64,000 nt of DNA, from NCBI GenBank assembly GCA_035438705.1, contig DAORIV010000003.1:4699-68698 (forward strand), in the 5' to 3' direction. This DNA is from Parcubacteria group bacterium. GTDB lineage: Bacteria; Patescibacteriota; Minisyncoccia; Phycocordibacterales; DATDWN01. Positions within the stretch are counted from its first letter, which is position 1. Each line of letters begins with the position of its first letter. Positions 1 through 34,720 of the stretch are shown one piece after another. Under the pieces are notes generated by a model. That model searched no databases and was not told the DNA's origin. It saw only the letters and a list, made by a program, of their open reading frames with translations. Position numbers and translations under genes: made by a program.

Positions 1-2558
1 ACTGCAGTTAAAGTGATGTTTGATCCAGCAGATACACTTTCAGAACAGTCTGCTCCACAGTTGATACCTGGGCCTGTGATTCGGCCACCCAAAGATGCTG
101 CGGCATTAACAGTTAATACATATGTCGAAGGAGCTGTAACAGTAACTGTGTTTGAAACTGCATGTTGTACAAGGATGTTGTCATTGTCCCATAGTCTGAA
201 ATTGTAGTTACCAGGTGTTACTGGTGCTGTAAATGTACAACTACCAGAGCTTCTAGATGAACCAGGTACTGTTTGAGTACATGGTGATACACCTTCATAT
301 TTCCAATCTAAGAATGAGTTACCTGTGTTGCCTAATATATACATTCCAATCCAGTCTCTTACAGTAGGTGTTGGTACGTTTGCAAATGTAACTGTTACTG
401 TACCTCCTGGTGCAATTGAAGATGGTGAAGCAGATAGTGTTGGTGCAGGAACAGAAGTTGTTGTAAATGAACTTACTGTAGAGTAACCAGTCCCTGTTGT
501 GTTAGTTGCATATCCTCTGTAGTAGATAGTTGTTCCTGATGGCATACCAGTTCTAGCATGTGTGAATACTCCAGTTGTAAGTCCTGATGCTGGTGTACAG
601 TTGGTTACCGGTGGATTGACTGTTCCCCAACATGTTCCTCGAGCAGATATTGCAGCTGGTACACCTAGTGATGTTACGTTTGCACCAAGTGTTGCACCTG
701 TTGTGGTGATGCCGGAGACTGTTGGAGAAACTACTGTTGGTACACCAGTATTCAAGCTAAAGTTAATATCGCTATTAACCCAGTTAGTGTTATTACCAAA
801 TTTATTTTGTACAAATCCAGATATATCGTTATTTGTTAAAGGATTTATAAACGAACTATCAAATCTGACATTGAAAACTGTAGTTCTGGTATTGCCATTA
901 ATAGTGTTTGTACAACTATCCAAATTTAAATATGTATCTCCATATCCAGTCTGTATAGCCGCAACTCCTCCTCCGGTGCAAGACATTTTATTTTTTAATG
1001 CATTCCATCCAGAATATAAGGAATCAAAATACCAAGTAACATAACCTCTATATTGGCCAGAATTACTTCCTTGATAATTTATAAGTGCATACTCATGAGA
1101 AATATTGCCACCACCCCTTGAATCTGTACTATTAACTGTAATCTGATATTGAGTTGAATTATCAGCAAAAACAGTTGGAGAACTTATTGTTACAGTAGGA
1201 CTAGTAGGTGTTGTGATAAGTGCAAAATTAATATCGAAATTCACCCAACCATTCCAATTATTATCAGTGTTTGATGTATACCCAGAAATATCGTTTAGAG
1301 TCCAAGGACCATTTGTTCCAAATAATGGATTAAAACTGACGTTAAATGTAGTTGTTCTGGTGCCCCCATTTACTGTAGTTGAACAACCATGTAACTCGAT
1401 ATAGTCATGACCATATACCGTGTTTCCGCCAGTTGATTGAATAGCCGCATATCCACCGCCCGAACACGACATCGCATCTTTGTTTCCTGCAAAAGAATAA
1501 CTAGCCCATGTTAAATAACCTCTATACTGTCCCGCATTAGTTCCCTGGTGATTAATTAGGGCATATTGTTGATTTATTTTATTTCCACCACCTGAATCAG
1601 ATGCAACAGCTGTTACTGTATATTGAGTTCCATTTGGATTTATATCTGATGAACTTATAGAAATATTATTTACGACTGGCGTTGTTACACCAACAAATGT
1701 AACTCCTGCAGAATAATCTGCATTAAGAGACCCCTCACAGCGTGCTCCTACTCCAAGTGCAGGACAAACGGCTTGCCAATTAAAAGCTCCTCCAAAGATA
1801 TCGTGTACCGCATCTATAGTTACATATGTATTTACTGGAAGTGCAATTACACAAGTTCCCCCCCTACAACTACCTGCATATGTCAGTGGTTGCCCAGCAG
1901 CAGTACTTGTATATCCCAGTGCTGTTCCAGGTCCACTTGCAGTAAACGTTAAAGTTCTAGTTGTACCACCACAACTATTTACTGTACAAGAATTACTACA
2001 AGTTCTTGGGCAACTTCCGTTATTTACTCCTGTATCACATTGCTCCCCTGGGTCAATTGAACCATTGCCACAAGTTGGTGCTGGTGGATTACAATTTATA
2101 AATGTACAACTCAAACTACATCCTCCAGGACAACTACCGTTATTAATTCCTAAGTCACATTGTTCTCCAGCATTAACCACACCATTACCACAATTCGGTG
2201 GCGGAGATGGATAAGTACAACTGCCGTCATCGACACTTGCATTTGGATTATAATTTGTGGCCCCAGGATCTGTACAACCAGAAATAACAACTGGTGGTGC
2301 ACATTCACACCTCTCGCCTGCCCAACAAGTCATAGCATCTCCACCATTTGGGCCAGCGCATTGAATGGTTCCCATATCCTGACAACTTGCTACCCCTGTT
2401 CCACAATTACAACTTATCCCAATATCCAATCCACATGAAGCTTGATTTGCCCCACAACCATTAACTACAGAACATTCAATCGTGTCAGCTACAACAAAAT
2501 TAATATTGAACAAAAAAAATAAAAATAGAAAGGCAATAAAAAATTTATTTTTAAACAT
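1..2558 (-). CDS. Large secreted Cys-rich-repeat surface protein, paralog of 3805..6885. The N-terminus is complete (ATG at 2558..2556) and the C-terminus runs off the window start.
   Basis: Reverse-strand hand translation from 2558 gives MFKNKFFIAFLFLFFLFNINFVVADT (a signal peptide) followed by repeated CGNG..GEQCD..C motifs. Positions 1..~725 are nucleotide-identical to 3947..~4672 of the intact 1026-aa gene, and the middle region is diverged but alignable. The ORF track omits it because no stop lies in-window. Confidence 0.55.
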   Translation of the reverse strand, partial: MFKNKFFIAFLFLFFLFNINFVVADTIECSVVNGCGANQASCGLDIGISCNCGTGVASCQDMGTIQCAGPNGGDAMTCWAGERCECAPPVVISGCTDPGATNYNPNASVDDGSCTYPSPPPNCGNGVVNAGEQCDLGINNGSCPGGCSLSCTFINCNPPAPTCGNGSIDPGEQCDTGVNNGSCPRTCSNSCTVNSCGGTTRTLTFTASGPGTALGYTSTAAGQPLTYAGSCRGGTCVIALPVNTYVTIDAVHDIFGGAFNWQAVCPALGVGARCEGSLNADYSAGVTFVGVTTPVVNNISISSSDINPNGTQYTVTAVASDSGGGNKINQQYALINHQGTNAGQYRGYLTWASYSFAGNKDAMSCSGGGYAAIQSTGGNTVYGHDYIELHGCSTTVNGGTRTTTFNVSFNPLFGTNGPWTLNDISGYTSNTDNNWNGWVNFDINFALITTPTSPTVTISSPTVFADNSTQYQITVNSTDSRGGGNISHEYALINYQGSNSGQYRGYVTWYFDSLYSGWNALKNKMSCTGGGVAAIQTGYGDTYLNLDSCTNTINGNTRTTVFNVRFDSSFINPLTNNDISGFVQNKFGNNTNWVNSDINFSLNTGVPTVVSPTVSGITTTGATLGANVTSLGVPAAISARGTCWGTVNPPVTNCTPASGLTTGVFTHARTGMPSGTTIYYRGYATNTTGTGYSTVSSFTTTSVPAPTLSASPSSIAPGGTVTVTFANVPTPTVRDWIGMYILGNTGNSFLDWKYEGVSPCTQTVPGSSRSSGSCTFTAPVTPGNYNFRLWDNDNILVQHAVSNTVTVTAPSTYVLTVNAAASLGGRITGPGINCGADCSESVSAGSNITLTA

Positions 2559-2617
2559 ATTTACTTAATAATAAAACATATTAATAGTCTAAACAATTTA
2601 CTTATGTGTATAAAAGA

Positions 2618-2660
2618 GAAAAGGCACAGTCGAATTCTATTCAACCGTGCCTTCCAATTT
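2618..2660 (-). terminator. Rho-independent terminator downstream of the GC-rich lipoprotein gene
   Basis: On the minus strand there is a GGCACGG..CTGTGCC hairpin with a ~14-nt loop, followed by TTTTCTCTTTT, immediately 3' of the stop at 2663. Confidence 0.4.
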
Positions 2661-2662
2661 CC

Positions 2663-3145
2663 CTAAGGTAGCGGGACGTATGAGATTGACCCATTACCAG
2701 ATACTAGAACTGGTGACCTGTTGGAAACCAGCACATTGTATATGAGACCAGAAACCCTTTCTGGGAACACGATTCTGGTGCCACCAGTCTTTGTCAGAGA
2801 GATGGTGGTTGGTTCCACAGAGGTGAGAGACATCTCGCCACCACTCTGTGTCTGTGTGAAGAGGCCGATATAGATTCGACGCTCTTCTGAATCAGTCAGG
2901 TTTACCTGCACATCCAGGACTGTGCCTTGACGAACATCCATCGGGACCGTTTTGTAAACCCCACCGAATGGGGTGTTGGGAACAAAAGGGTTCAGGGTGA
3001 AGTTGTTGATACTGATTGTCACCGGCTGAGAAACAGTCGGTGTGGAATTTGTGGGAGAAGTTGGACTCTGCAATCCACTCCCACCACATGCAGTACACAG
3101 ATTCGCCAGAAAGGCGACGAGGGCAACGAAAACGAGCTTGCGCAC
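2663..3145 (-). CDS. Putative lipoprotein in a GC-rich cassette. The likely start is GTG at 3145; the ORF track extends it to an ATG at 3175.
   Basis: The ORF is about 50% GC against roughly 33% in the flanks. A strong SD (AAAGGAGG) lies 7 nt upstream of the GTG. The N-terminus (M)RKLVFVALVAFLANLCTACGG looks like a signal peptide followed by Cys. Confidence 0.5.
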   Translation of the reverse strand: MRKLVFVALVAFLANLCTACGGSGLQSPTSPTNSTPTVSQPVTISINNFTLNPFVPNTPFGGVYKTVPMDVRQGTVLDVQVNLTDSEERRIYIGLFTQTQSGGEMSLTSVEPTTISLTKTGGTRIVFPERVSGLIYNVLVSNRSPVLVSGNGSISYVPLP

Positions 3146-3246
3146 GACACTGCCTCCTTTCGCCCCTTTGGGCATAAGTCTTCAGGGAACTTCTATCTAT
3201 ATTTAAACCCCAATATACCAAAAAGTCAAACTGCTATCCACAATAA

Positions 3247-3780
3247 CTACTTATTTAGAATTCTTAGGTTAACCTCGGTTTCCCCAGAAACATTGTTTTG
3301 CAAATATACCTTATAAATTGAACTATCATTTTCTGCCATTAGTATTGCACCAATATTTGCTCTAGTTGCTGATGAAGTGGCAAAATTCTCACGCAAAATA
3401 GTGTTTCTCAATGTTATATAAACATTTTTCATATCTTGTTTAATCGTATAATAAATATTTAAGCCTTTAGAACCGTCGTTGTAAGTTTCTTCTTTTATAC
3501 TTAACCCTTCTCCACCATCCAAAATGAAAATATTATTTTCTTCAACAGCTTGGGAATTTAATTCCTTTGTATCTTTAACAACCTTATTTGGGAATGAGAT
3601 TTTTGATTCCAAAATACTTTTAACTTCGTAAGGAGTATTTGTATCTTCATTAGATATTTTTTTTGTTTCATTTATTCTTTTTGCTTTTTCTAGCTCAAGA
3701 AAAACAACGTAGCCTAAAACCATAATTAACAAAACTACACCAATAGTAATAATAATTTTTTTAAATTTTTGTGTCTCCAT
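3247..3780 (-). CDS. Hypothetical membrane-anchored protein
   Basis: A 177-aa ORF with an N-terminal hydrophobic helix (IIITIGVVLLIMVLGYVVF) and low GC like the host. Confidence 0.5.
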   Translation of the reverse strand: METQKFKKIIITIGVVLLIMVLGYVVFLELEKAKRINETKKISNEDTNTPYEVKSILESKISFPNKVVKDTKELNSQAVEENNIFILDGGEGLSIKEETYNDGSKGLNIYYTIKQDMKNVYITLRNTILRENFATSSATRANIGAILMAENDSSIYKVYLQNNVSGETEVNLRILNK

Positions 3781-3804
3781 TGTTAAGATTATAACACTTT
3801 AATT

Positions 3805-6800
3805 TTAAAACTCTTTGTATATAAATGATCTCGCAACAAAATTCGCCGTCACACTCGTATCAGCATTCACAGTAATATTACATGTTGTAGATGTTCCTGA
3901 ACATGCACCAGACCACCCTGTGAATTTCCAATATGATGATGAAGGTACTGCAGTTAAAGTGATGTTTGATCCAGCAGATACACTTTCAGAACAGTCTGCT
4001 CCACAGTTGATACCTGGGCCTGTGATTCGGCCACCCAAAGATGCTGCGGCATTAACAGTTAATACATATGTCGAAGGAGCTGTAACAGTAACTGTGTTTG
4101 AAACTGCATGTTGTACAAGGATGTTGTCATTGTCCCATAGTCTGAAATTGTAGTTACCAGGTGTTACTGGTGCTGTAAATGTACAACTACCAGAGCTTCT
4201 AGATGAACCAGGTACTGTTTGAGTACATGGTGATACACCTTCATATTTCCAATCTAAGAATGAGTTACCTGTGTTGCCTAATATATACATTCCAATCCAG
4301 TCTCTTACAGTAGGTGTTGGTACGTTTGCAAATGTAACTGTTACTGTACCTCCTGGTGCAATTGAAGATGGTGAAGCAGATAGTGTTGGTGCAGGAACAG
4401 AAGTTGTTGTAAATGAACTTACTGTAGAGTAACCAGTCCCTGTTGTGTTAGTTGCATATCCTCTGTAGTAGATAGTTGTTCCTGATGGCATACCAGTTCT
4501 AGCATGTGTGAATACTCCAGTTGTAAGTCCTGATGCTGGTGTACAGTTGGTTACCGGTGGATTGACTGTTCCCCAACATGTTCCTCGAGCAGATATTGCA
4601 GCTGGTACACCTAGTGATGTTACGTTTGCACCAAGTGTTGCACCTGTTGTGGTGATGCCGGAGACTGTTGGGGTTGTAACAGTAGGAACAGTTGGAACAA
4701 GAAGATCGAACAATGACCCTTGAATCCAACCACTTGGATGACCAAACAAATTATATACATGGCCAGAAATAACATTACCAGTTGTAGGTGTAGTAAATGA
4801 TGGATCATACCTTACTACAAAATTAACTGTTCTATTGTTACCTGATGTTGATGTTGAACATGAATCAAGATTTACATAACCATGACCAAATCCCGTATTA
4901 CCTCCAGTGGACTGTATCACAGCCCAACCACCCCCAGTACATGCTATATGATTTTTGTCAGATGGCCACCAATCAGTACTACCCCAAGTTAAATATCCTC
5001 TGTATGTTCCTGCGTTTGCACCTTGAATATTTGTAAGTGCATAAACTTGAGAAACATTTGTGCCTGCAGTTGGATCATACGCAACAGCAGTTATGGTGTG
5101 TTGGGTAGAATTGTTTGTTGTCACAGGTGAAGGACTTATTGTTACAGAATTTATGGTCGGCATATTCAATCCGAAATTGATATCAAAATGTTCCCAAGGA
5201 CTATAATTGTTATTTGAGTTATAAGTAATACCGTGAATATCATTATTGGTAACTGTTGTTGAATATGCGGGTTCAAAAACCATTACAAAATTTACTGTTC
5301 TTGAATTAGATGTGTTTGTGGTATTACAACTTATAAGTCTTACATATTGATCTCCATATCCTGCCCAACCTCCAGCAGAAAGAATCGCTCCATAACCCCC
5401 ACCTGTACAAGCCATTGGATTCTTGTGACCAGTAAATGCACTGACTGATGTCCAAGCAAACCAACCCTTATTTATTCCATTTCCATCTCTCAGTAGTGCG
5501 TATTGATATGTTATTTTTGAAGAACCTCCAGTGTCTGCCCCAGTATGTGAAATTGTGTATTGAGTAGTTCCATTTGGAGTAACCATTGGTGAACTTATAG
5601 TCACATTATTTGTTGTTGGGGTTGTAACTCCAGTAAATGTAACCCCTGCACTATAGTTTGCATTAAGCAGGCCTTCACAACGAATGCCAACACCACTAGC
5701 TGGACACAGAGGTGTCCAAACAAATGGACCTCCGGTAGTATCGTGAACAGCGTCAATAGTTACATATGTATTGGTTGGAAGGGGTAGAGAACATGTTGCA
5801 TTTCTACATGAACCTATGTATGTAAGTGGCTGTCCTGCTCCAGTGCTTGAGTACCCCATTGCCGTTCCAGGTCCACTTGCGGTAAAAGTAAGTGTAGATA
5901 TTGTTCCACCACAACTATTTACCGTACATGAATTACTACAAGCCCTAGGACATGAACCATTATTTACACCTGTGTCACATTGCTCTCCAGCTTCAACCAC
6001 ACCATTACCACAACTAGATGATGAGCATGAATTTACCGTACATGAATTACTACAAGCCCTAGGACATGAACCATTATTTACACCTGTGTCACATTGCTCT
6101 CCAGCATTTATAATATTATTACCGCAATTTACTGGAGGCGATACAATAGCGACATTTATTGGTTGTGAATTTACATTTTTTGTTCCATAACCACCATATC
6201 CAGTTGCTTGTAAATTAAAAGTTGCCGTACCGACTGCTGTACCGGTACATGTTGTACCGTTAGTATCACCTGCAACCGATGCTCCATCAGCTATATCACA
6301 GCTGACAGGACCACTATAGCTTAGCACTGAATCACCTGTCCTTTCTGTTGCATTCCATGTTATATCAAACTGTCCACCTACTGCCATTGTTGAATTTGTA
6401 GTGTTAAATCCATTTATGGAAACTTCTCTACCATTCATATTAAAATTCACACTTGCATCTGCGTCATTTACATAAACATCAGCACTGACATAATTAAAAT
6501 TATTTGATGTAGCCCCAATACTTACAGTATTATTTGGTATACTCCCACTTGCATCACCTATATTTCCGGCTCCATTTGCATCAACAACATTCCAACAAGA
6601 ACCTGTCCACATACCTCCACCGCTGTTTATACAGACACTGATACCATACTTTCCCCCAGATGGACCTAGTGCTCCGTGTCCATCATATGTACCAGAAATA
6701 TCTACCGAATATACTTGTTTCTCTGTTCCAAAAGGTGGTGTGTTTATTACTGAAGATGCACTACTTCCATGCCTTGATATTGAAACTGTTTGAGAATATG

Positions 6801-6885
6801 AACCAGTAGATCCATTAACCACTGATTGTGTGAAAAAAAATGTTATAACTATTATTAATACTTTAATAAAATTAATTTTTTTCAT
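3805..6885 (-). CDS. Large secreted cell-surface protein with CGNG..GEQCD cysteine-rich repeats and tandem Gly/Trp-rich repeats
   Basis: A 1026-aa ORF with the N-terminal signal peptide MKKINFIKVLIIVITFFFTQSVVNGS. It has two tandem copies of GEQCDTGVNNGSCPRACSNSCTVNSC, which resemble Myxococcales-type Cys-rich repeats. It is rich in Thr, Ser, Gly and Asn. Confidence 0.8.
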   Translation of the reverse strand: MKKINFIKVLIIVITFFFTQSVVNGSTGSYSQTVSISRHGSSASSVINTPPFGTEKQVYSVDISGTYDGHGALGPSGGKYGISVCINSGGGMWTGSCWNVVDANGAGNIGDASGSIPNNTVSIGATSNNFNYVSADVYVNDADASVNFNMNGREVSINGFNTTNSTMAVGGQFDITWNATERTGDSVLSYSGPVSCDIADGASVAGDTNGTTCTGTAVGTATFNLQATGYGGYGTKNVNSQPINVAIVSPPVNCGNNIINAGEQCDTGVNNGSCPRACSNSCTVNSCSSSSCGNGVVEAGEQCDTGVNNGSCPRACSNSCTVNSCGGTISTLTFTASGPGTAMGYSSTGAGQPLTYIGSCRNATCSLPLPTNTYVTIDAVHDTTGGPFVWTPLCPASGVGIRCEGLLNANYSAGVTFTGVTTPTTNNVTISSPMVTPNGTTQYTISHTGADTGGSSKITYQYALLRDGNGINKGWFAWTSVSAFTGHKNPMACTGGGYGAILSAGGWAGYGDQYVRLISCNTTNTSNSRTVNFVMVFEPAYSTTVTNNDIHGITYNSNNNYSPWEHFDINFGLNMPTINSVTISPSPVTTNNSTQHTITAVAYDPTAGTNVSQVYALTNIQGANAGTYRGYLTWGSTDWWPSDKNHIACTGGGWAVIQSTGGNTGFGHGYVNLDSCSTSTSGNNRTVNFVVRYDPSFTTPTTGNVISGHVYNLFGHPSGWIQGSLFDLLVPTVPTVTTPTVSGITTTGATLGANVTSLGVPAAISARGTCWGTVNPPVTNCTPASGLTTGVFTHARTGMPSGTTIYYRGYATNTTGTGYSTVSSFTTTSVPAPTLSASPSSIAPGGTVTVTFANVPTPTVRDWIGMYILGNTGNSFLDWKYEGVSPCTQTVPGSSRSSGSCTFTAPVTPGNYNFRLWDNDNILVQHAVSNTVTVTAPSTYVLTVNAAASLGGRITGPGINCGADCSESVSAGSNITLTAVPSSSYWKFTGWSGACSGTSTTCNITVNADTSVTANFVARSFIYKEF

Positions 6886-6889
6886 ATTA

Positions 6890-7324
6890 TTAATATTCAG
6901 GGCCTATATATACAACTTCTAAAGCCTTACTCTGAACCCTTCCTAAAAAATTTTTAATTAGAATTGTCTCTACCCCAATAGATATATTCTGTGAATCTTT
7001 TTTTAGTGTTTCAAAATCTACTTCCTGGGTTTTCTTTGGTAAATCCTCAACAACAAACATTTCACCATTTTTTGGCAATACAAAAGAATTCTTGGTAATT
7101 TTGGTATCTTGATCCACTTCTATACCATACTCATACTGTGGCTTGCCTTTTTTTAATTCATCTTCAAAAGCTCCCAATATCAAGATTGAATTATCCCCCA
7201 CCGAAACAACTGAACCCGAAAATTTAATAATCTTTCCACTATCTACTAACCCAGCAATTAAATAAAAAAATACAAATAATATTAATAGAAACAAAATAGA
7301 AATAATTTTTTTCATACTAGACAT
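6890..7324 (-). CDS. Hypothetical small exported or membrane protein
   Basis: A 144-aa ORF with the N-terminal hydrophobic segment IISILFLLILFVFFYLIAGL. Confidence 0.5.
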   Translation of the reverse strand: MSSMKKIISILFLLILFVFFYLIAGLVDSGKIIKFSGSVVSVGDNSILILGAFEDELKKGKPQYEYGIEVDQDTKITKNSFVLPKNGEMFVVEDLPKKTQEVDFETLKKDSQNISIGVETILIKNFLGRVQSKALEVVYIGPEY

Positions 7325-7378
7325 TGTAGAATAAATATTCTTAATGTATATTTTAGTTTATTTAGAAAAATTGTAAAC

Positions 7379-7425
7379 GAAAAAAGGTGGACAACTAGCA
7401 TATAGCTGTTGCCCACCTTTCCCAT
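7379..7425 (-). terminator. Rho-independent terminator of the second GC-rich lipoprotein gene
   Basis: On the minus strand GGTGGGCAAC and GTTGTCCACC form a 10-bp stem with one G-U pair, followed by TTTTTT, directly 3' of the stop at 7437. Confidence 0.45.
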
Positions 7426-7436
7426 TAGCTTGTTCA

Positions 7437-8009
7437 CTACTGTGAGTAGCCGACTTCGAAGGAGTGATGTGCCCACAGGACACCCTCACCAGTAGAGGAT
7501 GTTCTCATCTCGACCAGGATGTACTTAAATGGGGGTACCATCATGAACATCCTTCCATCACCGAAGAAATAATCCTTGTCTGGAATGTCGATATAACCAT
7601 TCCCGAACTCAGGACCACTCTTTGACGTGCCATCACTTGATGGATAAATCGAGTAGTTCACACTATTCCCAGTGCGAAGATTGAGATTGTCCATCCGAAT
7701 ACGAATCATCGGAGAAAAACGGACGGTCCCATTCTGAACGACACCAGCTGAAGGACTGAGACTCACGAGCTCCACCACAGCGATGAAATCACGTGACGGA
7801 TCGTGATCCATCTTGGGACGAATCGCTCCAGTTGGAACAGTGAGAGCACCAGAAGGTGGCGGGGTGTTCGAGATGCAGCTGGGCGAGGTCATGAGAACAC
7901 CCTCGCAGTATTGCTTAGAGGTGGAATCGAGACCACCCTCAGCACAACCGATCGTGGTTGTGATACCCGCAAGGGCAAGAGCGACGAAAGCCGAACGAAA
8001 CGACGACAT
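7437..8009 (-). CDS. Putative lipoprotein in a GC-rich cassette
   Basis: A 190-aa ORF at about 50% GC. A strong SD (AAAGGGAGG) lies 5 nt upstream of the ATG. The signal peptide MSSFRSAFVALALAGITTTIGC carries a lipobox-like TIGC. Confidence 0.55.
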   Translation of the reverse strand: MSSFRSAFVALALAGITTTIGCAEGGLDSTSKQYCEGVLMTSPSCISNTPPPSGALTVPTGAIRPKMDHDPSRDFIAVVELVSLSPSAGVVQNGTVRFSPMIRIRMDNLNLRTGNSVNYSIYPSSDGTSKSGPEFGNGYIDIPDKDYFFGDGRMFMMVPPFKYILVEMRTSSTGEGVLWAHHSFEVGYSQ

Positions 8010-8131
8010 GGTGCCTCCCTTTGCCCTTATGGGCCGATGGTGGTTTGTGTGACAGAACTTGTGAACAAGTGCAGATCTAAATTAAGAATATACTAATATA
8101 AACAAAAATGTCAAGTAGCCTTATCCACACC

Positions 8132-9499
8132 CTATATACCACTTCTAGAAAGTAATGATTTCACAGTCTTTAGAGCAATTTTAATATCTAACCAGAATGA
8201 ACGATTTTTAATATAGTAAATATCGTATGTAAGTTTTTCTTTGGTAAGATTTACCTCTGGACCATGGTGGGGATGTAATTCCTGATGAGTTTGAGCCCAA
8301 CCAGAAAGCCCGGGTTTGATTAAGTGTCTAATGTTGTAGTAAGGAATCTCTTTATCATATATTGCAACACCTGTTGGAAGTTCTGGTCTTGGGCCAATAA
8401 GTGAAATGTCTCCTGCTAAAACATTCCAAAGTTGTGGGAGCTCATCTATACGAGTTTTTCTTAAAAAATTTCCAACACGAGTAACTTTGTTTTCCTTACT
8501 TGAATTCAAATCAACTTCATTTCTACTCATTGATCTAAATTTATACAACTTAATACTCTTTCCATCCTTTCCTACCCTATCCTGAGAAATAAATATCCTA
8601 CCTCCATCATCTACTTTTATTGCAACATATACAAAAGGATAGAAAACCAAAGATAACAAACCTAACACCATAGAAACAGAAATATCCATTAGTCTTTTTA
8701 GAAAATCATAGGTGTAATTCGGAGAAATGGATATGTTTTCTAAAAACCAACTATATGTAACCAAAGAAAGAGGTATCCGATCAAAGATATCTTCATAGAT
8801 TTTGTGTGAATCAATAAATTTTACTTTCGAGAAAATTAGGTTGTATAAGTGCGGCAAAAGTGGAGCGACTTTTTCATTTGAAAAATCTATAGCAACTATT
8901 TTTATATCATTGGAATATACTGGAGTTATAATGTCCTCTAGTACATTTATTGATTCCATGTCATGCACATCAATAGATGACACAAAATTCAAATCATATC
9001 TGTTATTTCCATTTACCTCCAGAAGCAACTCTTTCATTTCATCTCCAGTACCAATAAGAAATGCAGGTTGTTTGTCTTTAGAGCTAATCAAGTTTTTACC
9101 ATACAATCTCCAGAACAAAATACCCCCGAAAGAAATAATCAAATAGATGAACAATATTGTTTTCGGAGTAATGCGAAAAGTAGTAAAAGAATAAAAGAAA
9201 ACAATCGCAATTACACTGTTTACCAACTGTGCATTGAATATAACACTAGGGAGTTTACTTTTCAGTATTAGAGTATGTTTTTCATAAAGTCCAGCTATAA
9301 AATACACCAAAACCCAAACAGCAAATAGTATTGAAAAAGGAATTATGTGTACTGTGAATCTTTCTAATGTTGGGACTTCGGCAAATCTAATATACAAAGA
9401 AAACCACAAAGAAAAAACAAAGAAAAATACATCTCCGAAAAACAAGATTACGGCTTCTTTCTTTGGAAGTATGCTCATAAAATTATGTATTGAAAACAA
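8132..9499 (-). CDS. Polyprenyl-phosphate sugar phosphotransferase (bacterial sugar transferase, WbaP/CpsE-like)
   Basis: The C-terminal motifs SQDRVG.DG..I.LYKFRSM and RIDELPQLWNVLAGDISLIGPRP match the sugar-transferase catalytic domain, after multi-TM N-terminal helices. Confidence 0.8.
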   Translation of the reverse strand: MFSIHNFMSILPKKEAVILFFGDVFFFVFSLWFSLYIRFAEVPTLERFTVHIIPFSILFAVWVLVYFIAGLYEKHTLILKSKLPSVIFNAQLVNSVIAIVFFYSFTTFRITPKTILFIYLIISFGGILFWRLYGKNLISSKDKQPAFLIGTGDEMKELLLEVNGNNRYDLNFVSSIDVHDMESINVLEDIITPVYSNDIKIVAIDFSNEKVAPLLPHLYNLIFSKVKFIDSHKIYEDIFDRIPLSLVTYSWFLENISISPNYTYDFLKRLMDISVSMVLGLLSLVFYPFVYVAIKVDDGGRIFISQDRVGKDGKSIKLYKFRSMSRNEVDLNSSKENKVTRVGNFLRKTRIDELPQLWNVLAGDISLIGPRPELPTGVAIYDKEIPYYNIRHLIKPGLSGWAQTHQELHPHHGPEVNLTKEKLTYDIYYIKNRSFWLDIKIALKTVKSLLSRSGI

Positions 9500-13363: not shown

Positions 13364-13470
13364 AGTTCTGGCGCCTAGCTACTCTCCCACATAGTAGTAC
13401 CATCGCCTCAACAGAGCTTAACTGCCGTGTTCGGAATGAGAACGGGTGTGACCTCTGCGATAAAGCACCA
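13364..13470 (-). rRNA. rrf: 5S ribosomal RNA
   Basis: The reverse complement reads ...CCCGTTCTCATTCCGAACACGGCAGTTAAGCTCTGTTGAGGCGATGGTACTACTATGTGGGAGAGTAGCTAGGCGCCAGAAC, which are canonical 5S motifs. Ends are approximate. Confidence 0.85.
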
Positions 13471-13506
13471 AAACTAAATTTTCAAAGTAAAACTTCATGG
13501 CTTCAT

Positions 13507-13526: not shown

Positions 13527-13833
13527 AGTGATTGTTAAATTTCCTAATAGAAATCGGCTAATTAGTACACCTCGGCTACACATATTGCTATGCTTCCACC
13601 TAGTGCCTATCACGTGATCATCTCTCACGGGCCTCAAACGATTCCTAATCTTGAAGTTGGTTTCACTCTTAGATGCTTTCAGAGTTTATCCATTCCCGAC
13701 TTAGCTACTCTGCGGTGCCCTTGGCAGGACAGCAGACACACCAGAGGTCAGTTCACCCCGGTCCTCTCGTACTAGGGGCAAATCTTCTCAAGAATCAACG
13801 CCCACAGTAGATAGGAGACCAACCTGTCTCACG

Positions 13834-14409
13834 CATGTTTCCACAAATTACTTTGTGCATTGGACTATAACTTCATGTACCGAAAGGCACACTGTTGATG
13901 TTTAGTCTCTACGGGCGTTTATGAATTTCATCAAGAATGCGATACAAAATCGCAAATGTTTTGTTGCCACCCAAAAAAGGGTGGCGACCCTAACTGGATT
14001 CGAACCAGTGTCCTCGCTTTTCTTTTGGATGAGCAAGTGTCCTAGGCCTCTGGACGATAGGGTCCTAACAAAACGAAAGAACGACATTTCTCACTTGAGA
14101 AATGGCGGTAGTGAAAATGAGATCCCTGTACTAGCGGTCCTCGCTCTTCGAGCCAACGGCGTGCCAGTCTGGTCTATCTTCACTACCTCAACAATTCTTG
14201 ATGAAATTCACAAACTTCCCTCGGTATTATCCAAAACAAAAAATTAAATTGTTTGGACTCCACCGATATAAATCAACTTTAATCGCACGAATGCGACCGC
14301 CGTGATTTGATTGGTTCCTTATCTTTATTCATAAACGAAAATTCCTCTGAGGATTCAGATTGTGGAGAAATCCAGATTTTTTAGCAAGCTAAAAAGAAAT
14401 GAAATTCTC
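13834..14409 (-). other. Putative ORF-less self-splicing intron (group I-like), ~576 nt, inserted in 23S at the I-CreI/I-CeuI-type site (E. coli ~2593)
   Basis: The exon sequence CTGTCTCACG | ... | ACGGTCTGAACCCAGCTCGCGTAAG is contiguous in all uninterrupted 23S rRNAs (GGGTTTAGAACGTCGTGAGACAG). The insert has no sense-strand ORF longer than 61 aa. Confidence 0.6.
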
Positions 14410-15042
14410 CACGGTCTGAACCCAGCTCGCGTAAGATTTTAAATGGCGAACAGCCATACCCTTGGGAGCTTCTTCACCCCCAGGATATCTTGAGCCGACA
14501 TCGAGGTGCCGAACTGTGCCGTCGCTATGGACGCTTAGGCACAACCAGCCTGTTATCCCCAGGGTAGCTTTTATCCGATAATCTCCGGCCGCCTCTAAAA
14601 CGGACCGTCGGTTCACTATGTTCCACTTTCGTGTCTGTTTGACAAGTACGTCTTACAGTTAAGCCAGCTTATGCCATTACACTATCGGTATGGTTTCCAT
14701 TCACACCTAGCTGACCTTAATAAACTCCTCCGTTACTCTTTAGGAGGATAGCGCCCCACTAAAACTGCCCACCAGAAACTGTCTCTGTCCGTTTTTTCCG
14801 TACAGGTTAGAAAGTATATCAAACAAGATGGCTATTTCACTGACGACTCCAGGCTACCCGAAAGTGCCCTTCAAAGTCTCACCACTATGCTACGCATGCA
14901 AAACATACCCTCAATATCAAGTTGCAGTAAAGCTCCTGGGGTCTTTTCGTCTAACTGCGGGTAACCGGCATCTTCACCGGTATTGTATTTTCACCGAGCA
15001 AATCCCCGAGACAGTTCTCCAGTCATTATACCATTCGTGCAC

Positions 15043-15390
<348 letters not shown>

Positions 15391-16802
15391 CAGGGCTTAT
15401 ATAATCAACCTAAAATCTTGCGACTCTCGGCTACCATATTTGACCTTCTGGCATTGGTCAGGCATCACCCCCTATACATCCTCTTACGAGTTCGCAGGGA
15501 GCTGTGTTTTTGATAAACAGTTGCCAGAGATACTTTAGCTGCGGCCCACCGAAGTGGGCAAGCCTTATTCCGAAGTTACGGCTGCTTTTTTGCCGAGTTC
15601 CTTGGGGATCTCTCACTCGTTCGCCTTGGTCTACTCGACCTGACTACCTGTGTCGGTTTACGGTACGGATCTTATGTGATTAAGCTTAGAAATTTTTCTT
15701 GAAAGCGTGCTTTGTATAATCCCCTAGACTTACGCCCGGGTTTAAATACTGCTTGGTATTATCATTTAAGAAAGTGTGCGGATTTACCTACACAGCTACC
15801 TCACAGTACATACTCAAATCCAATAATGAGCTATACATACTACCCTCCGTCCTTCCATCGCATCACACAAAAGTGCAGGAATATTAACCTGCTGTCCATC
15901 GGCTGCGACTCTCGTCATTGCCTTAGGCCCGACTAACCCTGCTCTGATTGACATTGAACAGGAAACCTCAGTCTTTCGGCGCTGGGGGTTCTCGCCCCAG
16001 TTGTGGTTACTTGTGCCAACATTCTTACTTCGCAACGCTCCAGCGTGGGTCACCCCTTCGCCTTCACAGCAGATACGAATACTCTCCTACCGCTTGTCTT
16101 TTCCGAAGAAAAAACAAACCCTCAGTTTCGGTACATAACTTAGCCCCGATTATTTGCGGCGCGGAATCTCTTACTGAGTGAGCTGTTACGCTATCTTTCA
16201 AGGGTGGCTGCTTCTAAGCCTACCTCCTCAGTGTCTACGAAATTCCACCACCTTAAGCGCACTTAGTTATGATTTAGGGACCTTAAATAGAGATCTAGGC
16301 TGTTTCCTTTTTGACGTACGGAGCTTAGCCCCCGCCGTCTAACTGCCGTATAGTTAATCTTCCGTATTCGGAGTTTGATAGGTCTCACGAGATTGCTCCC
16401 TGTTGAGACCTTCCAGTGCTCTACCCCGGAAGGGTAAATACGACGCTAGCCCAAAAGCTATTTCGGAGAGAACCAGCTATTACCAGGCTCGATTAGCTTT
16501 TCACTTCTTACCACAAGTCATCCCAATGTATTGCACGGCAAACGGGTTCGGGCCTCCATCTATCTTTCGATAAACTTCACCCTGCTCATGGCAAGCTCGC
16601 TCTGGCTTCGGGTCTAATGCACACGATATATTCGCGCTATTCACACTCGGTTTCCCTGAGACTCCATCCGACAAAGGACTTAGTCAAACCGCGTACATTA
16701 ACTCGTTGGCTCATTCTTCAATAGGCACGCCGTGACGGATATAAATACCCGCTCCGACTCCTTGTAAGCATATGGTTTCAGATCTATTTCACTCCCCTTA
16801 TA

Positions 16803-16845
<43 letters not shown>

Positions 16846-17430
16846 ATCTTTAAATGTATTTAGCCTTACCGGTTAGTACCGGCAGATTCCTCCGAGCTAT
16901 TCATGTCTCGAAGTACTCAAGAACAGAAACAAAGAAGATATTATTTTTTCGCTCACGGGACCATTACCCTCTAGGGTTGTGCTTTCCAGCACATTAAACT
17001 AAAATAATATTTTTTAACTTCTCTCACAATAAATTGTGACGTCTCTGCCTTACAACCCCACCCCGCCATCCTCATTTCCAATTTCTCAGAAACAAAGATA
17101 GAAGGGTGGTTTGGGCTTTTGCGTTTTCGCTCGCCGCTATTTACGCAATAACAATTGTTCTCTTTTCCTCCAGGTACTGAAATGTTTTACTTCCCTGGGT
17201 GCACGATCTAGATAAACTCTAGACCAACGACATGTAGTCGTTAGGTTTCCCCATTCAGAAATTTTCGGATTAACGGTTGCTAGGCACCTCCCCGAAACTT
17301 ATCGCAGCCATGCTACGTCTTTCATCGCCATTTAAAGTCAAGGCATCCACCATACGCTCTTAAATTTCCCATTAGGAAATTTAAAAACCACAAGTTACAA
17401 AAAACGACCACTCGCTTTTTATAACAATTA

Positions 17431-22136: not shown

Positions 22137-25100
22137 TTAGTTAGATCTTGTTTGGATTAGGCCTGAAGCAGATAGGCCTGGTAGACCGTATCCGTTTGAC
22201 CAGTCAGCATCGAACAATCCTGATGTAGATGTAGCGTTACCTGACCATACGAAGTTACTTGTTGAAGTAGCTGCAGATGATGTAGATACGTTATATCCTG
22301 GAGTCAAGTTTGTTTGGTAAGCTGAGTCACCTAGAAGTGTTGCCACTACTGATGAACCTGTAGTTACACCAGATACTGAACCCTTAAGCTCGAAGTATAC
22401 TGTTGAACCAGCTGAAACTTGAACTGGAGAAATTGAACCAAGTGATGGTGCAATTGCAAATGCAGTTCCGTTTGTAGCTGTTGATACAGTTGATCCGATT
22501 TGACCTGATGTACCTTGACCAGAAACTGGTGAAGAGTATGAAGCATCAGTGTATCCGAACAATTGTATGTTTGTAACTGTAGCTGATGTTGTTGATAGAG
22601 TGAACTTGAATTGAGAAACTCCGATAGAGCCGTTTGAATTAGCTGTAACTTTGAATCTCATTAGTCTTCCATCAGCAATACCTGTTGATGCTAGTGTATC
22701 AAGCGCTAGAACTGGGTATGACTTGAATAGTCTTAGACCAGCAACAGATGTTGAACCTGTAGCGTTGATTGTTGAACCAGAACCAACTCCTGTACCTTGA
22801 GTACCTGTTGAGTCTGAACCGTTAAAGTCAACTCTGATTAGACTTCCCTGTGTTCCAGGTTGTGAAGTTCCAACTGAAGCTGTATCTACTTTAACTGTTA
22901 GAGTCTTGTCAGCATCCTTAGGTAGAGAAACTGGAGTTGCAAATGTTGATGTAGCGTATGCACTTGTTCCAGTGAATACTGCTGAACCAATTTGAACAGC
23001 ACCGTCCCAGATAGAAACTGAAACTAGATCAGCTGATGAGCCAGATGTTAGTTTTAGTCCTAGTCTGTTTAGGTTAACTCCTTCGTTTGTAGCTCTGAAC
23101 TTCAATACTGCTGCTGTTGATCCTGTTGAACCAGCTGCAACAACTCCGTATGAAGGAGATGAAGAATCTGTAGATACAACTAGAGAACCTGTTCCAACAG
23201 TCATTGTAGAACCTGCTGCGTTAGTAACTGTCTCTGAAACATCATTTGATGAAGTTACTCCAGTTACTGTTATTGATGGAGATGATAGTCCCCATGCTAG
23301 TGTTCCAGAAGCTGCTGAAGTCACATTACATTTTAGTGCAAGTGTCTTAACAGTTCCCTTTGTTACAACTAGAGATTGATCTAGTGTAAATGTATTGTTT
23401 CCTGTTGCTGAAGGATTAACAACATTTGAACCTGTGTTCAATGCTACTGATCCATCAAACAATTGACATGAGTTTACATGAGAAGCACTTACTGATGCTG
23501 ACAATGATAGTGGGATAGAAGAGAATCTTACATCCTCACCAGATTGTGAAGCATCGAATTGGAAGTTACTAAATGTAAATCCTTGTGCACCAGCTACGAT
23601 ACTTTGAGCAGCTGGAGTTGCAGAAACTCTTATATCAAGAGCTGCAGCTCTAACTGTCATAGTGTTCATAGTGAATACAGCGTTTGTCAAAGTTAGGTTG
23701 TTACCTGTTGTTTGACCTGTAACGTTTGTCCAATCAGATGAAGGTGTTGTTGATGCAACAATTGTTGAATTGTTTGACAAAGTTGAAGGAAGTTTACCCT
23801 TTAGAGTATATGTCTTCATTCCAACTGGGTATGTAATTGTATCTGTGAATGTTACTTTTTGTGCAACACCACCTACGTTTACTGCATCAACTGGTCCTGC
23901 AACTACTGCACCGTTTTGATCAACGATTGAAACGTTTGTCAAAAGGTTTGAAGAAGCAGCTACACCAGCATTGTAGTTAAACCAGAATACAGCACTTTGT
24001 ACTGAGATTGGTTCACCCTTGATGTCTGTTTGGTATCCTCCAAGTACTTGGTTAGGAACGTTAAGTGCTACGTTTTGAGCAGCTACTGAAGTTGCCTTTT
24101 GGATAGTTGTTACTGATCCACCAGATACTGTTACTAGAGAACCTGAGAAGAATGGTGTACCTGTTGTAAATTCAGAACCTGTTGTTACTGAACCAGTTGA
24201 ACCTGGAGTTGGTGTTATACCATATCCATAAGTTACACCTGATACATAAACATCAGTGTTTCTGTAAATATCAAATTGTACTGTTCTTCCTGAAGCTCCT
24301 GATCCAACGATATCTCCTTGGATGTAAACATCCTTAGAAAGACCTTTGTCTAGAAGAATTCCACCAGGGAAGTTAGCAGAGAAATACTTACCATCAGAAG
24401 AAACTTCTGTTGGATAAGATGTTCCATCTACATAAACCATTACATTAGCAAGGTCGTTTGCTGAAGCAGAACCTGTTTGGTTCCATCTTACTGACCAAAG
24501 TTTAACTTGCTCTGCTGAGCCAGCTGTAACTCTGATACCAGCAAATTTGTATGCTGTTGTACCAATTTCTTTTGTTTGAGCTGTGTTTGGATCAAATGAA
24601 GAAACTGCTAGTTGTGATGTTCCAAGTGTTAATGAAGCGTTAACAGTGTGTTGAGCACCTGTTACTGGAAGTGATCCAGCAACTGAAGCTGAAGTGTTAA
24701 CTGCGATAACATTTAGTCCTCCAACTTGTCCTGCATATGAAGACAATGAAGAATTCATGTTACCTGCTACAGTAACAGTTTGTGAAGTACCAGCTTTGAT
24801 CACCCAAGGCTCACCTACCATTGCTTGGTGGTTTGAGTTAAGTGTCTTTGCGATACCAATTTGTGTTCCATCACTCTTTAGTAGAACAACTCCTGACAAT
24901 GCAGCGTCTTGCATTAGTCCAACTCTTTCAACTGTCAATGAATTAACAGTTACATCAGATGAACCAGCTGTAAGAACAACTGTAGTGAAAGGAACTCTTG
25001 AAGCACTTTGTGGTGCTAGAGAGTTAGCAGGTTGTGAACCAGCTGAAACTGTAAGTGATCCACCTTGTGGATTACCTGGAGTAACTGGAGTTGTAACAAC

Positions 25101-25553
25101 TGAATTCATTGAATTCAATTTTGCTCTAGTTATAGCTCCTACATATCCAGCAGCTGGAGTAATTCCATATTTATTTTGGAATTTGATTACAGCAGCTTTT
25201 GTAGCTGGACCGAAAGTTGAAGTCTCCATACCTGGTGAACCAGCGCCTGTAGATGCAACTTTTGTGTCAGCACTCATGTTAAGAACCTTTTGTAGATTCA
25301 TAACATCAGTACCCTTACTACCAACTGTTAAATTTGTGTTGAATGTGTAGCCAGTTGAAGCTGTACTACCACCCGTTGTTGCTGAAAGTTGTGCTTGTAG
25401 CGCTGAAATAGTCGCTAGCAAACTGTTGATTTGAGCTTGTAGGTCAGTTGCTGATTGAGCACTTGCAAGTGCTGGTACAAATGCACCAGCTGCCATTGCG
25501 ATACCTACAAAACCAGATACCAACTTTGCAGTTGTTGATTTTGTTAAATTCAT
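22137..25553 (-). CDS. Giant secreted surface protein (1138 aa) with an N-terminal peptidoglycan-binding domain and a Thr/Ser/Val-rich beta-repeat body (S-layer-like)
   Basis: It has a signal peptide and a coiled coil. GSKGTDVMNLQKVLN..FGPATKAAVIKFQNKYGITPAAGYVGAITRAKL matches PG_binding_1. A ~640-nt AT-rich upstream leader is consistent with high expression. Confidence 0.8.
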   Translation of the reverse strand: MNLTKSTTAKLVSGFVGIAMAAGAFVPALASAQSATDLQAQINSLLATISALQAQLSATTGGSTASTGYTFNTNLTVGSKGTDVMNLQKVLNMSADTKVASTGAGSPGMETSTFGPATKAAVIKFQNKYGITPAAGYVGAITRAKLNSMNSVVTTPVTPGNPQGGSLTVSAGSQPANSLAPQSASRVPFTTVVLTAGSSDVTVNSLTVERVGLMQDAALSGVVLLKSDGTQIGIAKTLNSNHQAMVGEPWVIKAGTSQTVTVAGNMNSSLSSYAGQVGGLNVIAVNTSASVAGSLPVTGAQHTVNASLTLGTSQLAVSSFDPNTAQTKEIGTTAYKFAGIRVTAGSAEQVKLWSVRWNQTGSASANDLANVMVYVDGTSYPTEVSSDGKYFSANFPGGILLDKGLSKDVYIQGDIVGSGASGRTVQFDIYRNTDVYVSGVTYGYGITPTPGSTGSVTTGSEFTTGTPFFSGSLVTVSGGSVTTIQKATSVAAQNVALNVPNQVLGGYQTDIKGEPISVQSAVFWFNYNAGVAASSNLLTNVSIVDQNGAVVAGPVDAVNVGGVAQKVTFTDTITYPVGMKTYTLKGKLPSTLSNNSTIVASTTPSSDWTNVTGQTTGNNLTLTNAVFTMNTMTVRAAALDIRVSATPAAQSIVAGAQGFTFSNFQFDASQSGEDVRFSSIPLSLSASVSASHVNSCQLFDGSVALNTGSNVVNPSATGNNTFTLDQSLVVTKGTVKTLALKCNVTSAASGTLAWGLSSPSITVTGVTSSNDVSETVTNAAGSTMTVGTGSLVVSTDSSSPSYGVVAAGSTGSTAAVLKFRATNEGVNLNRLGLKLTSGSSADLVSVSIWDGAVQIGSAVFTGTSAYATSTFATPVSLPKDADKTLTVKVDTASVGTSQPGTQGSLIRVDFNGSDSTGTQGTGVGSGSTINATGSTSVAGLRLFKSYPVLALDTLASTGIADGRLMRFKVTANSNGSIGVSQFKFTLSTTSATVTNIQLFGYTDASYSSPVSGQGTSGQIGSTVSTATNGTAFAIAPSLGSISPVQVSAGSTVYFELKGSVSGVTTGSSVVATLLGDSAYQTNLTPGYNVSTSSAATSTSNFVWSGNATSTSGLFDADWSNGYGLPGLSASGLIQTRSN

Positions 25554-34638: not shown

Positions 34639-34712
34639 GCGCCTGTAGCTCAGTTGGTTAGAGCACAGAGCTTATACCTCTGGGGTCCCTGGTTCGAGTC
34701 CAGGCAGGCGCA
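34639..34712 (+). tRNA. tRNA-Ile with anticodon UAU (reads AUA)
   Basis: The sequence GCGCCTG-TA-GCTC-AGTTGGTTA-GAGC-A-CAGAG-CTTATAC-CTCTG-GGGTC-CCTGG-TTCGAGT-CCAGG-CAGGCGC-A folds into a full cloverleaf with a perfect 7-bp acceptor stem. The backbone closely resembles bacterial tRNA-Ile. CCA is not encoded. Confidence 0.75.
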
Positions 34713-34720
34713 CACGATTC

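Follow-up and report, generated by a model that had tools for sequence, protein, structure and literature searches.

How can two neighbouring genes that have diverged over most of their length end in exactly the same sequence? The question is raised by the first 6,885 nucleotides (nt) of a 64,000-nt stretch of contig DAORIV010000003.1 (assembly GCA_035438705.1), the whole of which is called the window here. Two large genes on the minus strand, gene 1 and gene 2, encode predicted surface proteins and share a 3' block, designated R, that is identical base for base. This block very probably results from gene conversion between old paralogs, acting alongside the replacement of a cassette by imported DNA. 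The features on which the argument turns are the following, with protein lengths in amino acids (aa) and open reading frames abbreviated as ORFs.

3..2558, minus strand: gene 1, the first 852 codons of an 899-aa paralog (from the translation)
3805..6885, minus strand: gene 2, a 1026-aa secreted multidomain protein (ORF and translation)
1..725, minus strand: copy of R in gene 1, with 108 further nt left of the window
3839..4671, minus strand: copy of R in gene 2, 833 nt encoding the Fn3-like and DWIGMY domains and most of the InlB B-repeat domain
3805..3838, minus strand: unconverted, locus-specific end of gene 2, its last 34 nt (11 codons and the stop codon), ending in VARSFIYKEF
3247..3780, minus strand: 177-aa ORF beginning 24 nt past the gene 2 stop codon, with an N-terminal hydrophobic segment resembling a membrane anchor
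2663..3175, minus strand: 170-aa ORF with a lipoprotein-like signal (…LANLCTAC…)

The 3' end of gene 1 (47 codons and the stop codon) lies beyond the left window edge, and the gene is available at full length in the related loci L001 and L002 and as proteins P0046 and P0004. The gene 2 product is exactly NCBI HRH26746.1 (P0040), from a metagenome-assembled genome (MAG) labelled 'Parcubacteria group bacterium'. A sequence-only reading of the window had described the pair as tandem, giant, Cys-rich-repeat genes. Both lie on the minus strand, the 177-aa and 170-aa ORFs sit between them, and products of 1026 and 899 aa are large rather than giant. Cys-rich modules are present, yet they occupy only about 76 residues of each protein.

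Extent of the identical block

Positions 1-725 match 3947-4671 without a mismatch, the first difference falling at 726/4672. The exact identity was described correctly beforehand, with the second interval run one base too far, to 4672. In contigs that span both genes (L001 and L002), the full repeat measures 833 nt and ends 34 nt before the stop codon. The C-terminal identity, put at about 240 residues in the sequence-only reading, is confirmed and extends to 277 residues; the last 11 residues differ at 4 positions (VARSFIYKEF in gene 2 vs TPRAFIYREF in gene 1). The divergence of the upstream parts was likewise recognised correctly. Past the boundary of R, an ungapped comparison gives 55-58% identity at first and about 30% thereafter, and a colinear diverged stretch further upstream (1626-1925 vs 5566-5865) reaches 68%. 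Neither R nor the Cys modules have additional copies in the 64-kb window.

The arrangement recurs well outside this assembly. Exact look-ups of the 177-aa ORF and of a 144-aa ORF upstream of gene 2 retrieved about 20 contigs from ENA, JGI and Logan, drawn from different samples, and 23 contigs of widely varied sample origin encode the 177-aa protein without any change. Neither gene 2 nor the flanking transferase gave a match when the exact protein was looked up, and a scan of metagenome contigs yielded one extra locus, which is truncated (L028). All four junctions between unique sequence and R are found again in independent ENA, JGI, NCBI and Logan assemblies from different samples. The sequence downstream of gene 2, the two small ORFs and the 5' part of gene 1 are joined in more than eight independent contigs. 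Many contigs end k-1 bases within R, which is what a true repeat should produce.

Probable gene conversion between the paralogs

Gene conversion is supported by a comparison that drew on six other assemblies of the locus. Among the versions recovered, L021 and L020 share about 77% and 72% nt identity with the window, and L001 shares 99.4-99.5%. L022, a MAG, belongs to the same species, with a flank 98.6% identical and a gene 1 100% identical to the window. The central domains of the proteins group by orthology, at 77-100% identity between copies of gene 1 and 68-89% between copies of gene 2 or gene A, its counterpart in L022, against 56-64% between paralogs. The duplication therefore predates these lineages.

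In three lineages, by contrast, the last 870 nt group by genome. Within a genome the two copies are 97.7% identical in the window (divergent tail included), 99.7% in L021 and 77.4% in L020, and identity between lineages is 71-81%. In L021, a tract of 871 nt is 100% identical and ends one base past the stop codon. The paralogs of L020 share a C-terminal architecture that the window lineage lacks, with an extra Ig-like domain and no Fn3-like domain. Since these copies are only 77% alike, collapse of an assembly graph cannot explain their clustering by genome. In both lineages with an exact tract, the 5' boundary falls in the linker before the Fn3-like domain, where the paralogs are about 57% identical.

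The direction of transfer is given by L022, whose paralogs are 86.9% identical in R; because they differ there by 13%, they serve as an unconverted reference. At 183 sites that separate the two genes of L022, gene 2 of the window is of gene-A type upstream of R and of gene-1 type inside it. It returns to gene-A type in the last 34 nt and in a patch of 31 nt, which has a counterpart in gene 1.

4036..4066, minus strand: 31-nt polymorphic patch in the gene 2 copy, AAASLGG allele, of gene-2/gene-A type on an R of gene-1 type
90..120, minus strand: 31-nt patch in the gene 1 copy, marking the reverse transfer from gene 2 to gene 1

In L001, neither copy has the patch. At least four alleles occur among close strains (AAASLGG, VNPVNGG, AVTSLGG and YTNPTNGG), and the allele is the same in both paralogs in five genome contexts, differing only in L022. 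The alleles differ at all base types, synonymous changes included, so the patch was imported and not mutated in place. Within R, gene 2 has been overwritten by gene 1 sequence; in the window lineage, a short segment has also passed back from gene 2 to gene 1.

These observations have the form of concerted evolution: similarity within a genome exceeds similarity between orthologs, the adjacent sequence keeps its orthology, and mosaic donor tracts carry homogenised synonymous sites. The earlier proposal of recent gene conversion is sustained by the within-genome and between-genome identities, by the donor-typed mosaic tracts and by the co-varying patch alleles. The comparison of strains for mosaic alleles likewise revealed mosaic tracts with sharp boundaries relative to L022.

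Replacement of a strain-specific cassette

The identical block had also been put forward as homology for unequal crossing-over or domain shuffling, a way to vary an exposed adhesin. Conversion at this locus homogenises the 3' block instead of diversifying the protein, and the variation found between strains lies in the replacement of the 5' part together with upstream genes.

6130..8128, minus strand: strain-specific cassette with the 190-aa ORF, the 144-aa ORF and the first 252 codons of gene 2
7437-8009, minus strand: 190-aa lipoprotein-like ORF within the cassette
6890-7324, minus strand: 144-aa membrane-anchored ORF within the cassette
8132..9499, minus strand: Bac_transf, a polyprenyl glycosylphosphotransferase forming the conserved left flank, 98.6% identical to L022 from here on

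Across 6130-8128, no homology to L022 is detectable. That strain carries in the same position a DsbA gene, ORFs of 184 and 167 aa, and a different Cys-rich N-terminus. Homology restarts at the Cys module and runs as a mosaic of 60-97% through the rest of gene 2, followed by 92-97% in the two small ORFs and 100% at gene 1. The two near-identical genomes differ here by an allelic replacement of about 5.5 kb, one breakpoint of which lies at the Cys-rich module.

The site itself is shared more widely. In other Saccharibacteria species, the interval from Bac_transf to secDF holds one or two large genes with shuffled domain content, and all species-representative relatives are labelled 'uncultured Candidatus Saccharibacteria'. 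Within the cassette, gene 2 and the 144-aa ORF also begin alike: over the 56 nt that take in the start codon and 5' leader (6834-6889 and 7264-7319) they are 71% identical, and their translation-start and signal-peptide regions are similar.

Protein architecture

Both proteins begin with a signal-peptide-like N-terminus. In gene 2 it is followed by an allele-specific region of about 250 aa and two Cys modules. From there on the two genes agree, with a beta domain, two domains of about 155 aa modelled as Ig-like, an Fn3-like domain, a beta-sandwich with the motif DWIGMY, and an InlB B-repeat domain, after which gene 2 ends in FIYKEF. Residues 943-1018 of gene 2 match PF18998 (Flg_new_2, InlB B-repeat) at 43.1 bits against a gathering cutoff of 23.6, and the isolated domain scores 52.6 bits.

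5902..6129, minus strand: two Cys modules of 38 aa each in gene 2, CGN-x4-GEQCD-x-G-x-NNGSCPRACSNSCTVNSC, which hold the perfect 75-nt repeat
1968..2198, minus strand: two Cys modules in gene 1, with 72-77% DNA identity to the gene 2 module

The perfect, in-frame 75-nt repeat reported in the sequence-only reading exists, but in another place and with another spacing: 5917-5991 (not 5935-6009) equals 6031-6105, and the period is 114 nt (38 codons) instead of 96 nt. It duplicates GEQCDTGVNNGSCPRACSNSCTVNS. Tandem Repeats Finder reports no array at the Cys modules because fewer than two full 114-nt units are present. The suggested kinship with a Myxococcales-type module stands at the level of alignment and falls short by profile score. 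The modules align in register with DUF4215/TIGR02232 repeats of Myxococcota proteins, and BLASTP against the PF13948-annotated proteins P0021 and P0014 gives E values near 1e-12 in multiple registers at 33-45% identity. Gene 1, however, scores 19.8 bits against TIGR02232 (myxo_disulf_rpt), under the cutoff of 20.8; gene 2 has no match to that model at E<=0.01; and the gene 2 modules reach 18.4 bits against PF13948 (DUF4215), under the cutoff of 27. The 38-aa unit fits the pattern of this 'Myxococcus cysteine-rich repeat' (CGNG-x-[IV]-[DEN]-x-GE-x-CD-x-G…C…C…CG). It occurs here as two modules per protein, whereas the known proteins carry long arrays in an otherwise unrelated architecture.

The proteins end in …NFVARSFIYKEF or …NFTPRAFIYREF, straight after the last beta domain. 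Every family member, including P0002-P0009, has F-x-[PA]-R-[AS]-F-I-Y-[KR]-E-F at the extreme C-terminus, and the same tail closes the more distant modular proteins P0176, P0163 and P0159. A looser version, F-N-Y-[SQ]-E-F, occurs in P0078 and P0126; among distant modular secreted proteins, such looser endings read …PRIFNYSEF, …VRLFNYQEF and …PRAFIYKEQ. The tail may be a terminal sorting or anchoring signature, or merely the last strand of the domain.

Full-length relatives are few. About nine close homologue clusters were found, and about four clusters at 50% identity match over the full length, while the component domains are common. A profile search of 1.8 billion representatives retrieved mostly multi-copy InlB B-repeat proteins, a search with the last 95 residues alone gave short fragments, and the family profile had no match among PDB sequences at E<=1. 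The full-length AlphaFold model has a mean predicted local distance difference test score (pLDDT) of 49. Its Foldseek matches are to complement and macroglobulin proteins, at TM-scores of at most 0.16 and root-mean-square deviations above 20 A, and show no more than a string of beta-sandwiches. A model of the central domains (pLDDT 65) gives generic Ig-like or nanobody-like matches, none at E<=0.001.

Possible unequal crossing-over and alternative explanations

The repeats had also been read as a substrate for unequal crossing-over, and the junctions that this would produce do occur. A fusion of the gene 2 5' part, R and the gene 1 tail, with secD directly after it, is found in L029 (73 kb, JGI 3300014059 Ga0119868_1000048) and in P0041. 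The reciprocal junction, from the gene 1 5' part through R into the sequence downstream of gene 2, is present in L008. L001 has one 114-nt module fewer, a one-module allele of 988 aa vs 1026 aa. Each of these variants could equally be obtained from an assembler at a repeat, so unequal crossing-over is no more than a candidate here. Nearly all Logan contigs end inside the module repeat, L001 has a coverage of 5.8x, and the 3.2-kb stretch missing between the repeats of L029 exists as a separate contig, L004, in the same sample. L029 could be a collapsed assembly or a coexisting deletion variant.

Several points weigh against the interpretation as a whole. All sequences compared here come from short-read metagenome assemblies, in which a de Bruijn graph merges near-identical repeats. 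Such merging may inflate the '100%' identity of the R copies, and mixed strains could yield consensus artefacts. As regards surface location, neither protein has an LPXTG signal or a C-terminal membrane anchor, and the structure models, of low to moderate confidence, offer generic Ig-like matches only. We infer a surface location and a role in attachment from the signal peptides together with the kinds of domain present and the setting of the genes.

The assembly concern can be taken to its limit, where the copies of R would be no more than similar, or the two-gene arrangement a chimera of strains, and the perfect identity and matching patch alleles would come from a single collapsed edge threaded through both positions. 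The many contigs that stop k-1 bases into R or into the 75-nt module repeat would fit this, as would L029, which traverses R once and leaves the intervening loop to L004, and the thin coverage of L001. Collapse requires near-identity beforehand, however, and assemblers keep the 13%-diverged copies of L022 apart. Samples with a single patch allele assemble both unique flanks, which means that both copies carry that allele. The linkage from gene 2 through the small ORFs to gene 1 recurs in those more than eight independent contigs, and the L020 copies are too different to collapse, yet still cluster by genome and share an architecture that their orthologs lack. We regard an artefact as improbable. 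A programmed system, in which an expression site draws on a donor cassette or R serves regulated deletion and duplication, with frequent N-terminal switching within a clone, would account for the fusion and reciprocal junctions and for the 988-aa vs 1026-aa variants. Yet both genes are complete, each with a start codon and signal peptide, and there are two copies instead of an array of promoterless cassettes. No recombinase, invertase or reverse transcriptase was seen beside the locus, all variant junctions lie exactly where an assembler would make them, and conversion makes the genes more alike. This explanation is quite improbable too.

A diversity-generating retroelement, or another form of targeted mutagenesis, would produce the 31-nt patch and turn R into a pair of template and variable repeats; in its favour, a short stretch where the last domain begins has at least four alleles in close strains. 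The repeats are nevertheless identical, with no adenine-specific differences, and the patch alleles differ at all base types and at synonymous positions, as imported sequence would. At 833 nt, R is far longer than a typical variable repeat, and no reverse transcriptase appears among the annotated neighbours, in a scan that covered only part of the window ORFs. A retroelement is highly improbable. Purifying selection on an essential C-terminal anchoring region, acting without recombination, would draw on the family-wide conservation of the C-terminal domain and of the tail F-x-P-R-x-F-I-Y-[KR]-E-F. It is at odds with synonymous sites that are also 100% identical, with orthologous R blocks that differ by 18-28% between lineages, with the 13% divergence of the L022 paralogs and with the sharp bounds of the mosaic tracts, and we give it next to no credence. 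Gene conversion combined with cassette replacement accounts best for the data.

A probable mechanism

We assign the window to an uncultured genome of Candidatus Saccharibacteria (TM7). The site lies between envelope-polysaccharide genes (GT4 and Bac_transf) and secDF, and contains one or two genes for large secreted beta-sandwich proteins, each accompanied by small membrane-anchored and lipoprotein ORFs. This lineage has two old paralogs, their duplication predating the split of at least three lineages. Homologous recombination between them has probably copied the 3' 830-870 nt or so repeatedly and in a non-reciprocal manner. In the window lineage, gene 1 sequence has replaced that of gene 2 across 833 nt, from the linker before the Fn3-like domain to 34 nt before the stop codon. 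Heteroduplex cannot extend upstream of the linker because the paralogs are only about 57% identical there. The 31-nt patch of gene-2 type was retained and then passed back to gene 1.

Alongside this, a cassette of about 5.5 kb, made up of the first gene's 5' part with the upstream accessory ORFs, is swapped between strains that are elsewhere 98.6-100% identical, likely by natural transformation followed by homologous recombination. Both a RecA-type recombination machinery and DNA uptake by transformation are presumed in this scheme. Saccharibacteria are naturally competent and recombine with homology arms of about 1 kb (PMC10633639), and one Tn-seq study found protein adhesins to be required for their epibiotic growth (PMC10633639).

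A more speculative extension assigns a function to the shared block. The Fn3-like domain, DWIG-x-Y, the terminal InlB B-repeat and the invariant tail PR-x-F-I-Y-[KR]-E-F-COOH would form a display or anchoring module specific to Saccharibacteria/Patescibacteria that engages a shared partner; conversion would keep the paralogs compatible with this partner, natural transformation would swap the host-facing N-terminal cassettes, and the locus would set host attachment. We hold this as doubtful. The partner might be found among the co-encoded small membrane-anchored and lipoprotein ORFs.

Comparison with known systems

The closest described case is that of the Helicobacter pylori outer-membrane adhesin paralogs babA/babB and homA/homB. 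In these genes, 3' segments are similar within a strain through concerted evolution and other segments cluster between strains (PMC3960876, citing Pride & Blaser 2002), and inter-locus gene conversion gives chimeras (PMC3960876). Both systems have paralogs with a concerted 3' segment, with a receptor-facing part that is diverged in H. pylori. There, however, the loci are dispersed, the conserved 3' part is an outer-membrane beta-barrel, and conversion has been shown experimentally and alters adhesion. In the present case, 1 kb separates the genes, the bacterium is a monoderm-type member of the Candidate Phyla Radiation (CPR), the conserved part comprises three soluble beta-sandwich domains, and the case is known from sequence alone.

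Cassette-based antigenic variation, as in Neisseria pilE/pilS, Borrelia vlsE, Mycoplasma genitalium MgPa and Treponema tprK, combines one expression site with many silent partial cassettes and diversifies the variable region at high frequency. The present locus resembles these systems in the non-reciprocal homologous recombination between repeated segments of surface-protein genes. It differs in that there are two genes, both of them complete with start codon and signal peptide, and in that the conserved region moves. Sortase-anchored Gram-positive surface proteins end in an LPXTG motif with a hydrophobic segment and a charged tail, unlike the proteins described here. Capsule and O-antigen locus switching, of which E. 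coli group 3 capsules are an example (PMC10433991), likewise involves a hypervariable block that sits between conserved flanks and passes whole from one near-identical strain to another. In contrast to those loci, the block here encodes a surface protein and small accessory proteins instead of glycan synthesis, and one breakpoint lies within coding sequence, at a conserved Cys module. Literature searches turned up no account of this locus, nor any of gene conversion in Saccharibacteria.

Transcription units and other features of the window

A terminator-like hairpin separates the small ORFs from gene 1.

2619..2655, minus strand: terminator-like hairpin between the 170-aa ORF and gene 1, 17 pairs and then a T run (consensus scan)

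Because of this hairpin, the sequence suggests that gene 2 and the 177-aa and 170-aa ORFs may form one transcription unit and gene 1 another. A promoter scan found 22 candidates against 28 expected from shuffled sequence, which is not above expectation. The 170-aa ORF is called as 119 aa in two JGI contigs (L002, 2950-3309, and L005) that are elsewhere 99.97% identical, where a one-base difference shifts the start or the reading frame; in L022, no gene is called at this position. The NCBIfam model 'invert_tail' on this ORF was rejected, as it scores 20 bits against a cutoff of 37 and falls on the signal-peptide region.

The wider context fits a CPR chromosome, with a 23S rRNA gene carrying about 900 extra nt, a 5S rRNA gene, a tmRNA and housekeeping genes. 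The 23S match at 13541-17376 (minus strand) spans 3836 nt against a model of 2925 positions, which implies one or more insertions totalling about 900 nt. Within it, at 13982-14064 (minus strand), Rfam (40.6 bits) and ARAGORN agree on a tRNA-like element whose 4-base anticodon loop is 'tcca'. The 5S gene lies at 13366-13472, and no 16S gene is adjacent to the 23S gene. At 49922-53350 (minus strand), a class I isoleucyl-type tRNA synthetase (IleRS) of 1142 aa has its catalytic segments interrupted at residues 500-653 by a histidine-phosphatase domain (PF00300, E 1e-28), an unusual architecture. A tRNA-Ile with anticodon TAT (UAU), instead of the usual CAU-plus-lysidine route, is encoded at 34639-34713 (plus strand) and is possibly relevant to this synthetase. 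Two other candidates for secreted or wall-associated proteins, a 1138-aa protein with a peptidoglycan-binding domain (22137-25553, minus strand) and a 642-aa DUF11 protein (47405-49333, minus strand), are unrelated to genes 1 and 2, and neither has the FIYKEF tail.

Significance for CPR bacteria

That paralogous surface-protein genes evolve in concert is well known from bacteria, and this locus is a further example, in a CPR bacterium. It also offers a clean natural example of homologous recombination in a CPR genome. As the 833-nt repeat breaks or collapses most short-read assemblies, gene content at this site is liable to be misreported often in MAGs. Other bacteria serve Saccharibacteria as hosts to which they live attached, and little is understood of the recognition and binding involved. 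The locus combines a conserved position, a content that is highly variable between near-identical strains and clear traces of intragenomic recombination, which makes it a reasonable candidate for a strain-specific determinant of host interaction. If the shared C-terminal block does act as a display module, the locus would help to decide, at the level of the strain, to which host bacterium the epibiont can attach.

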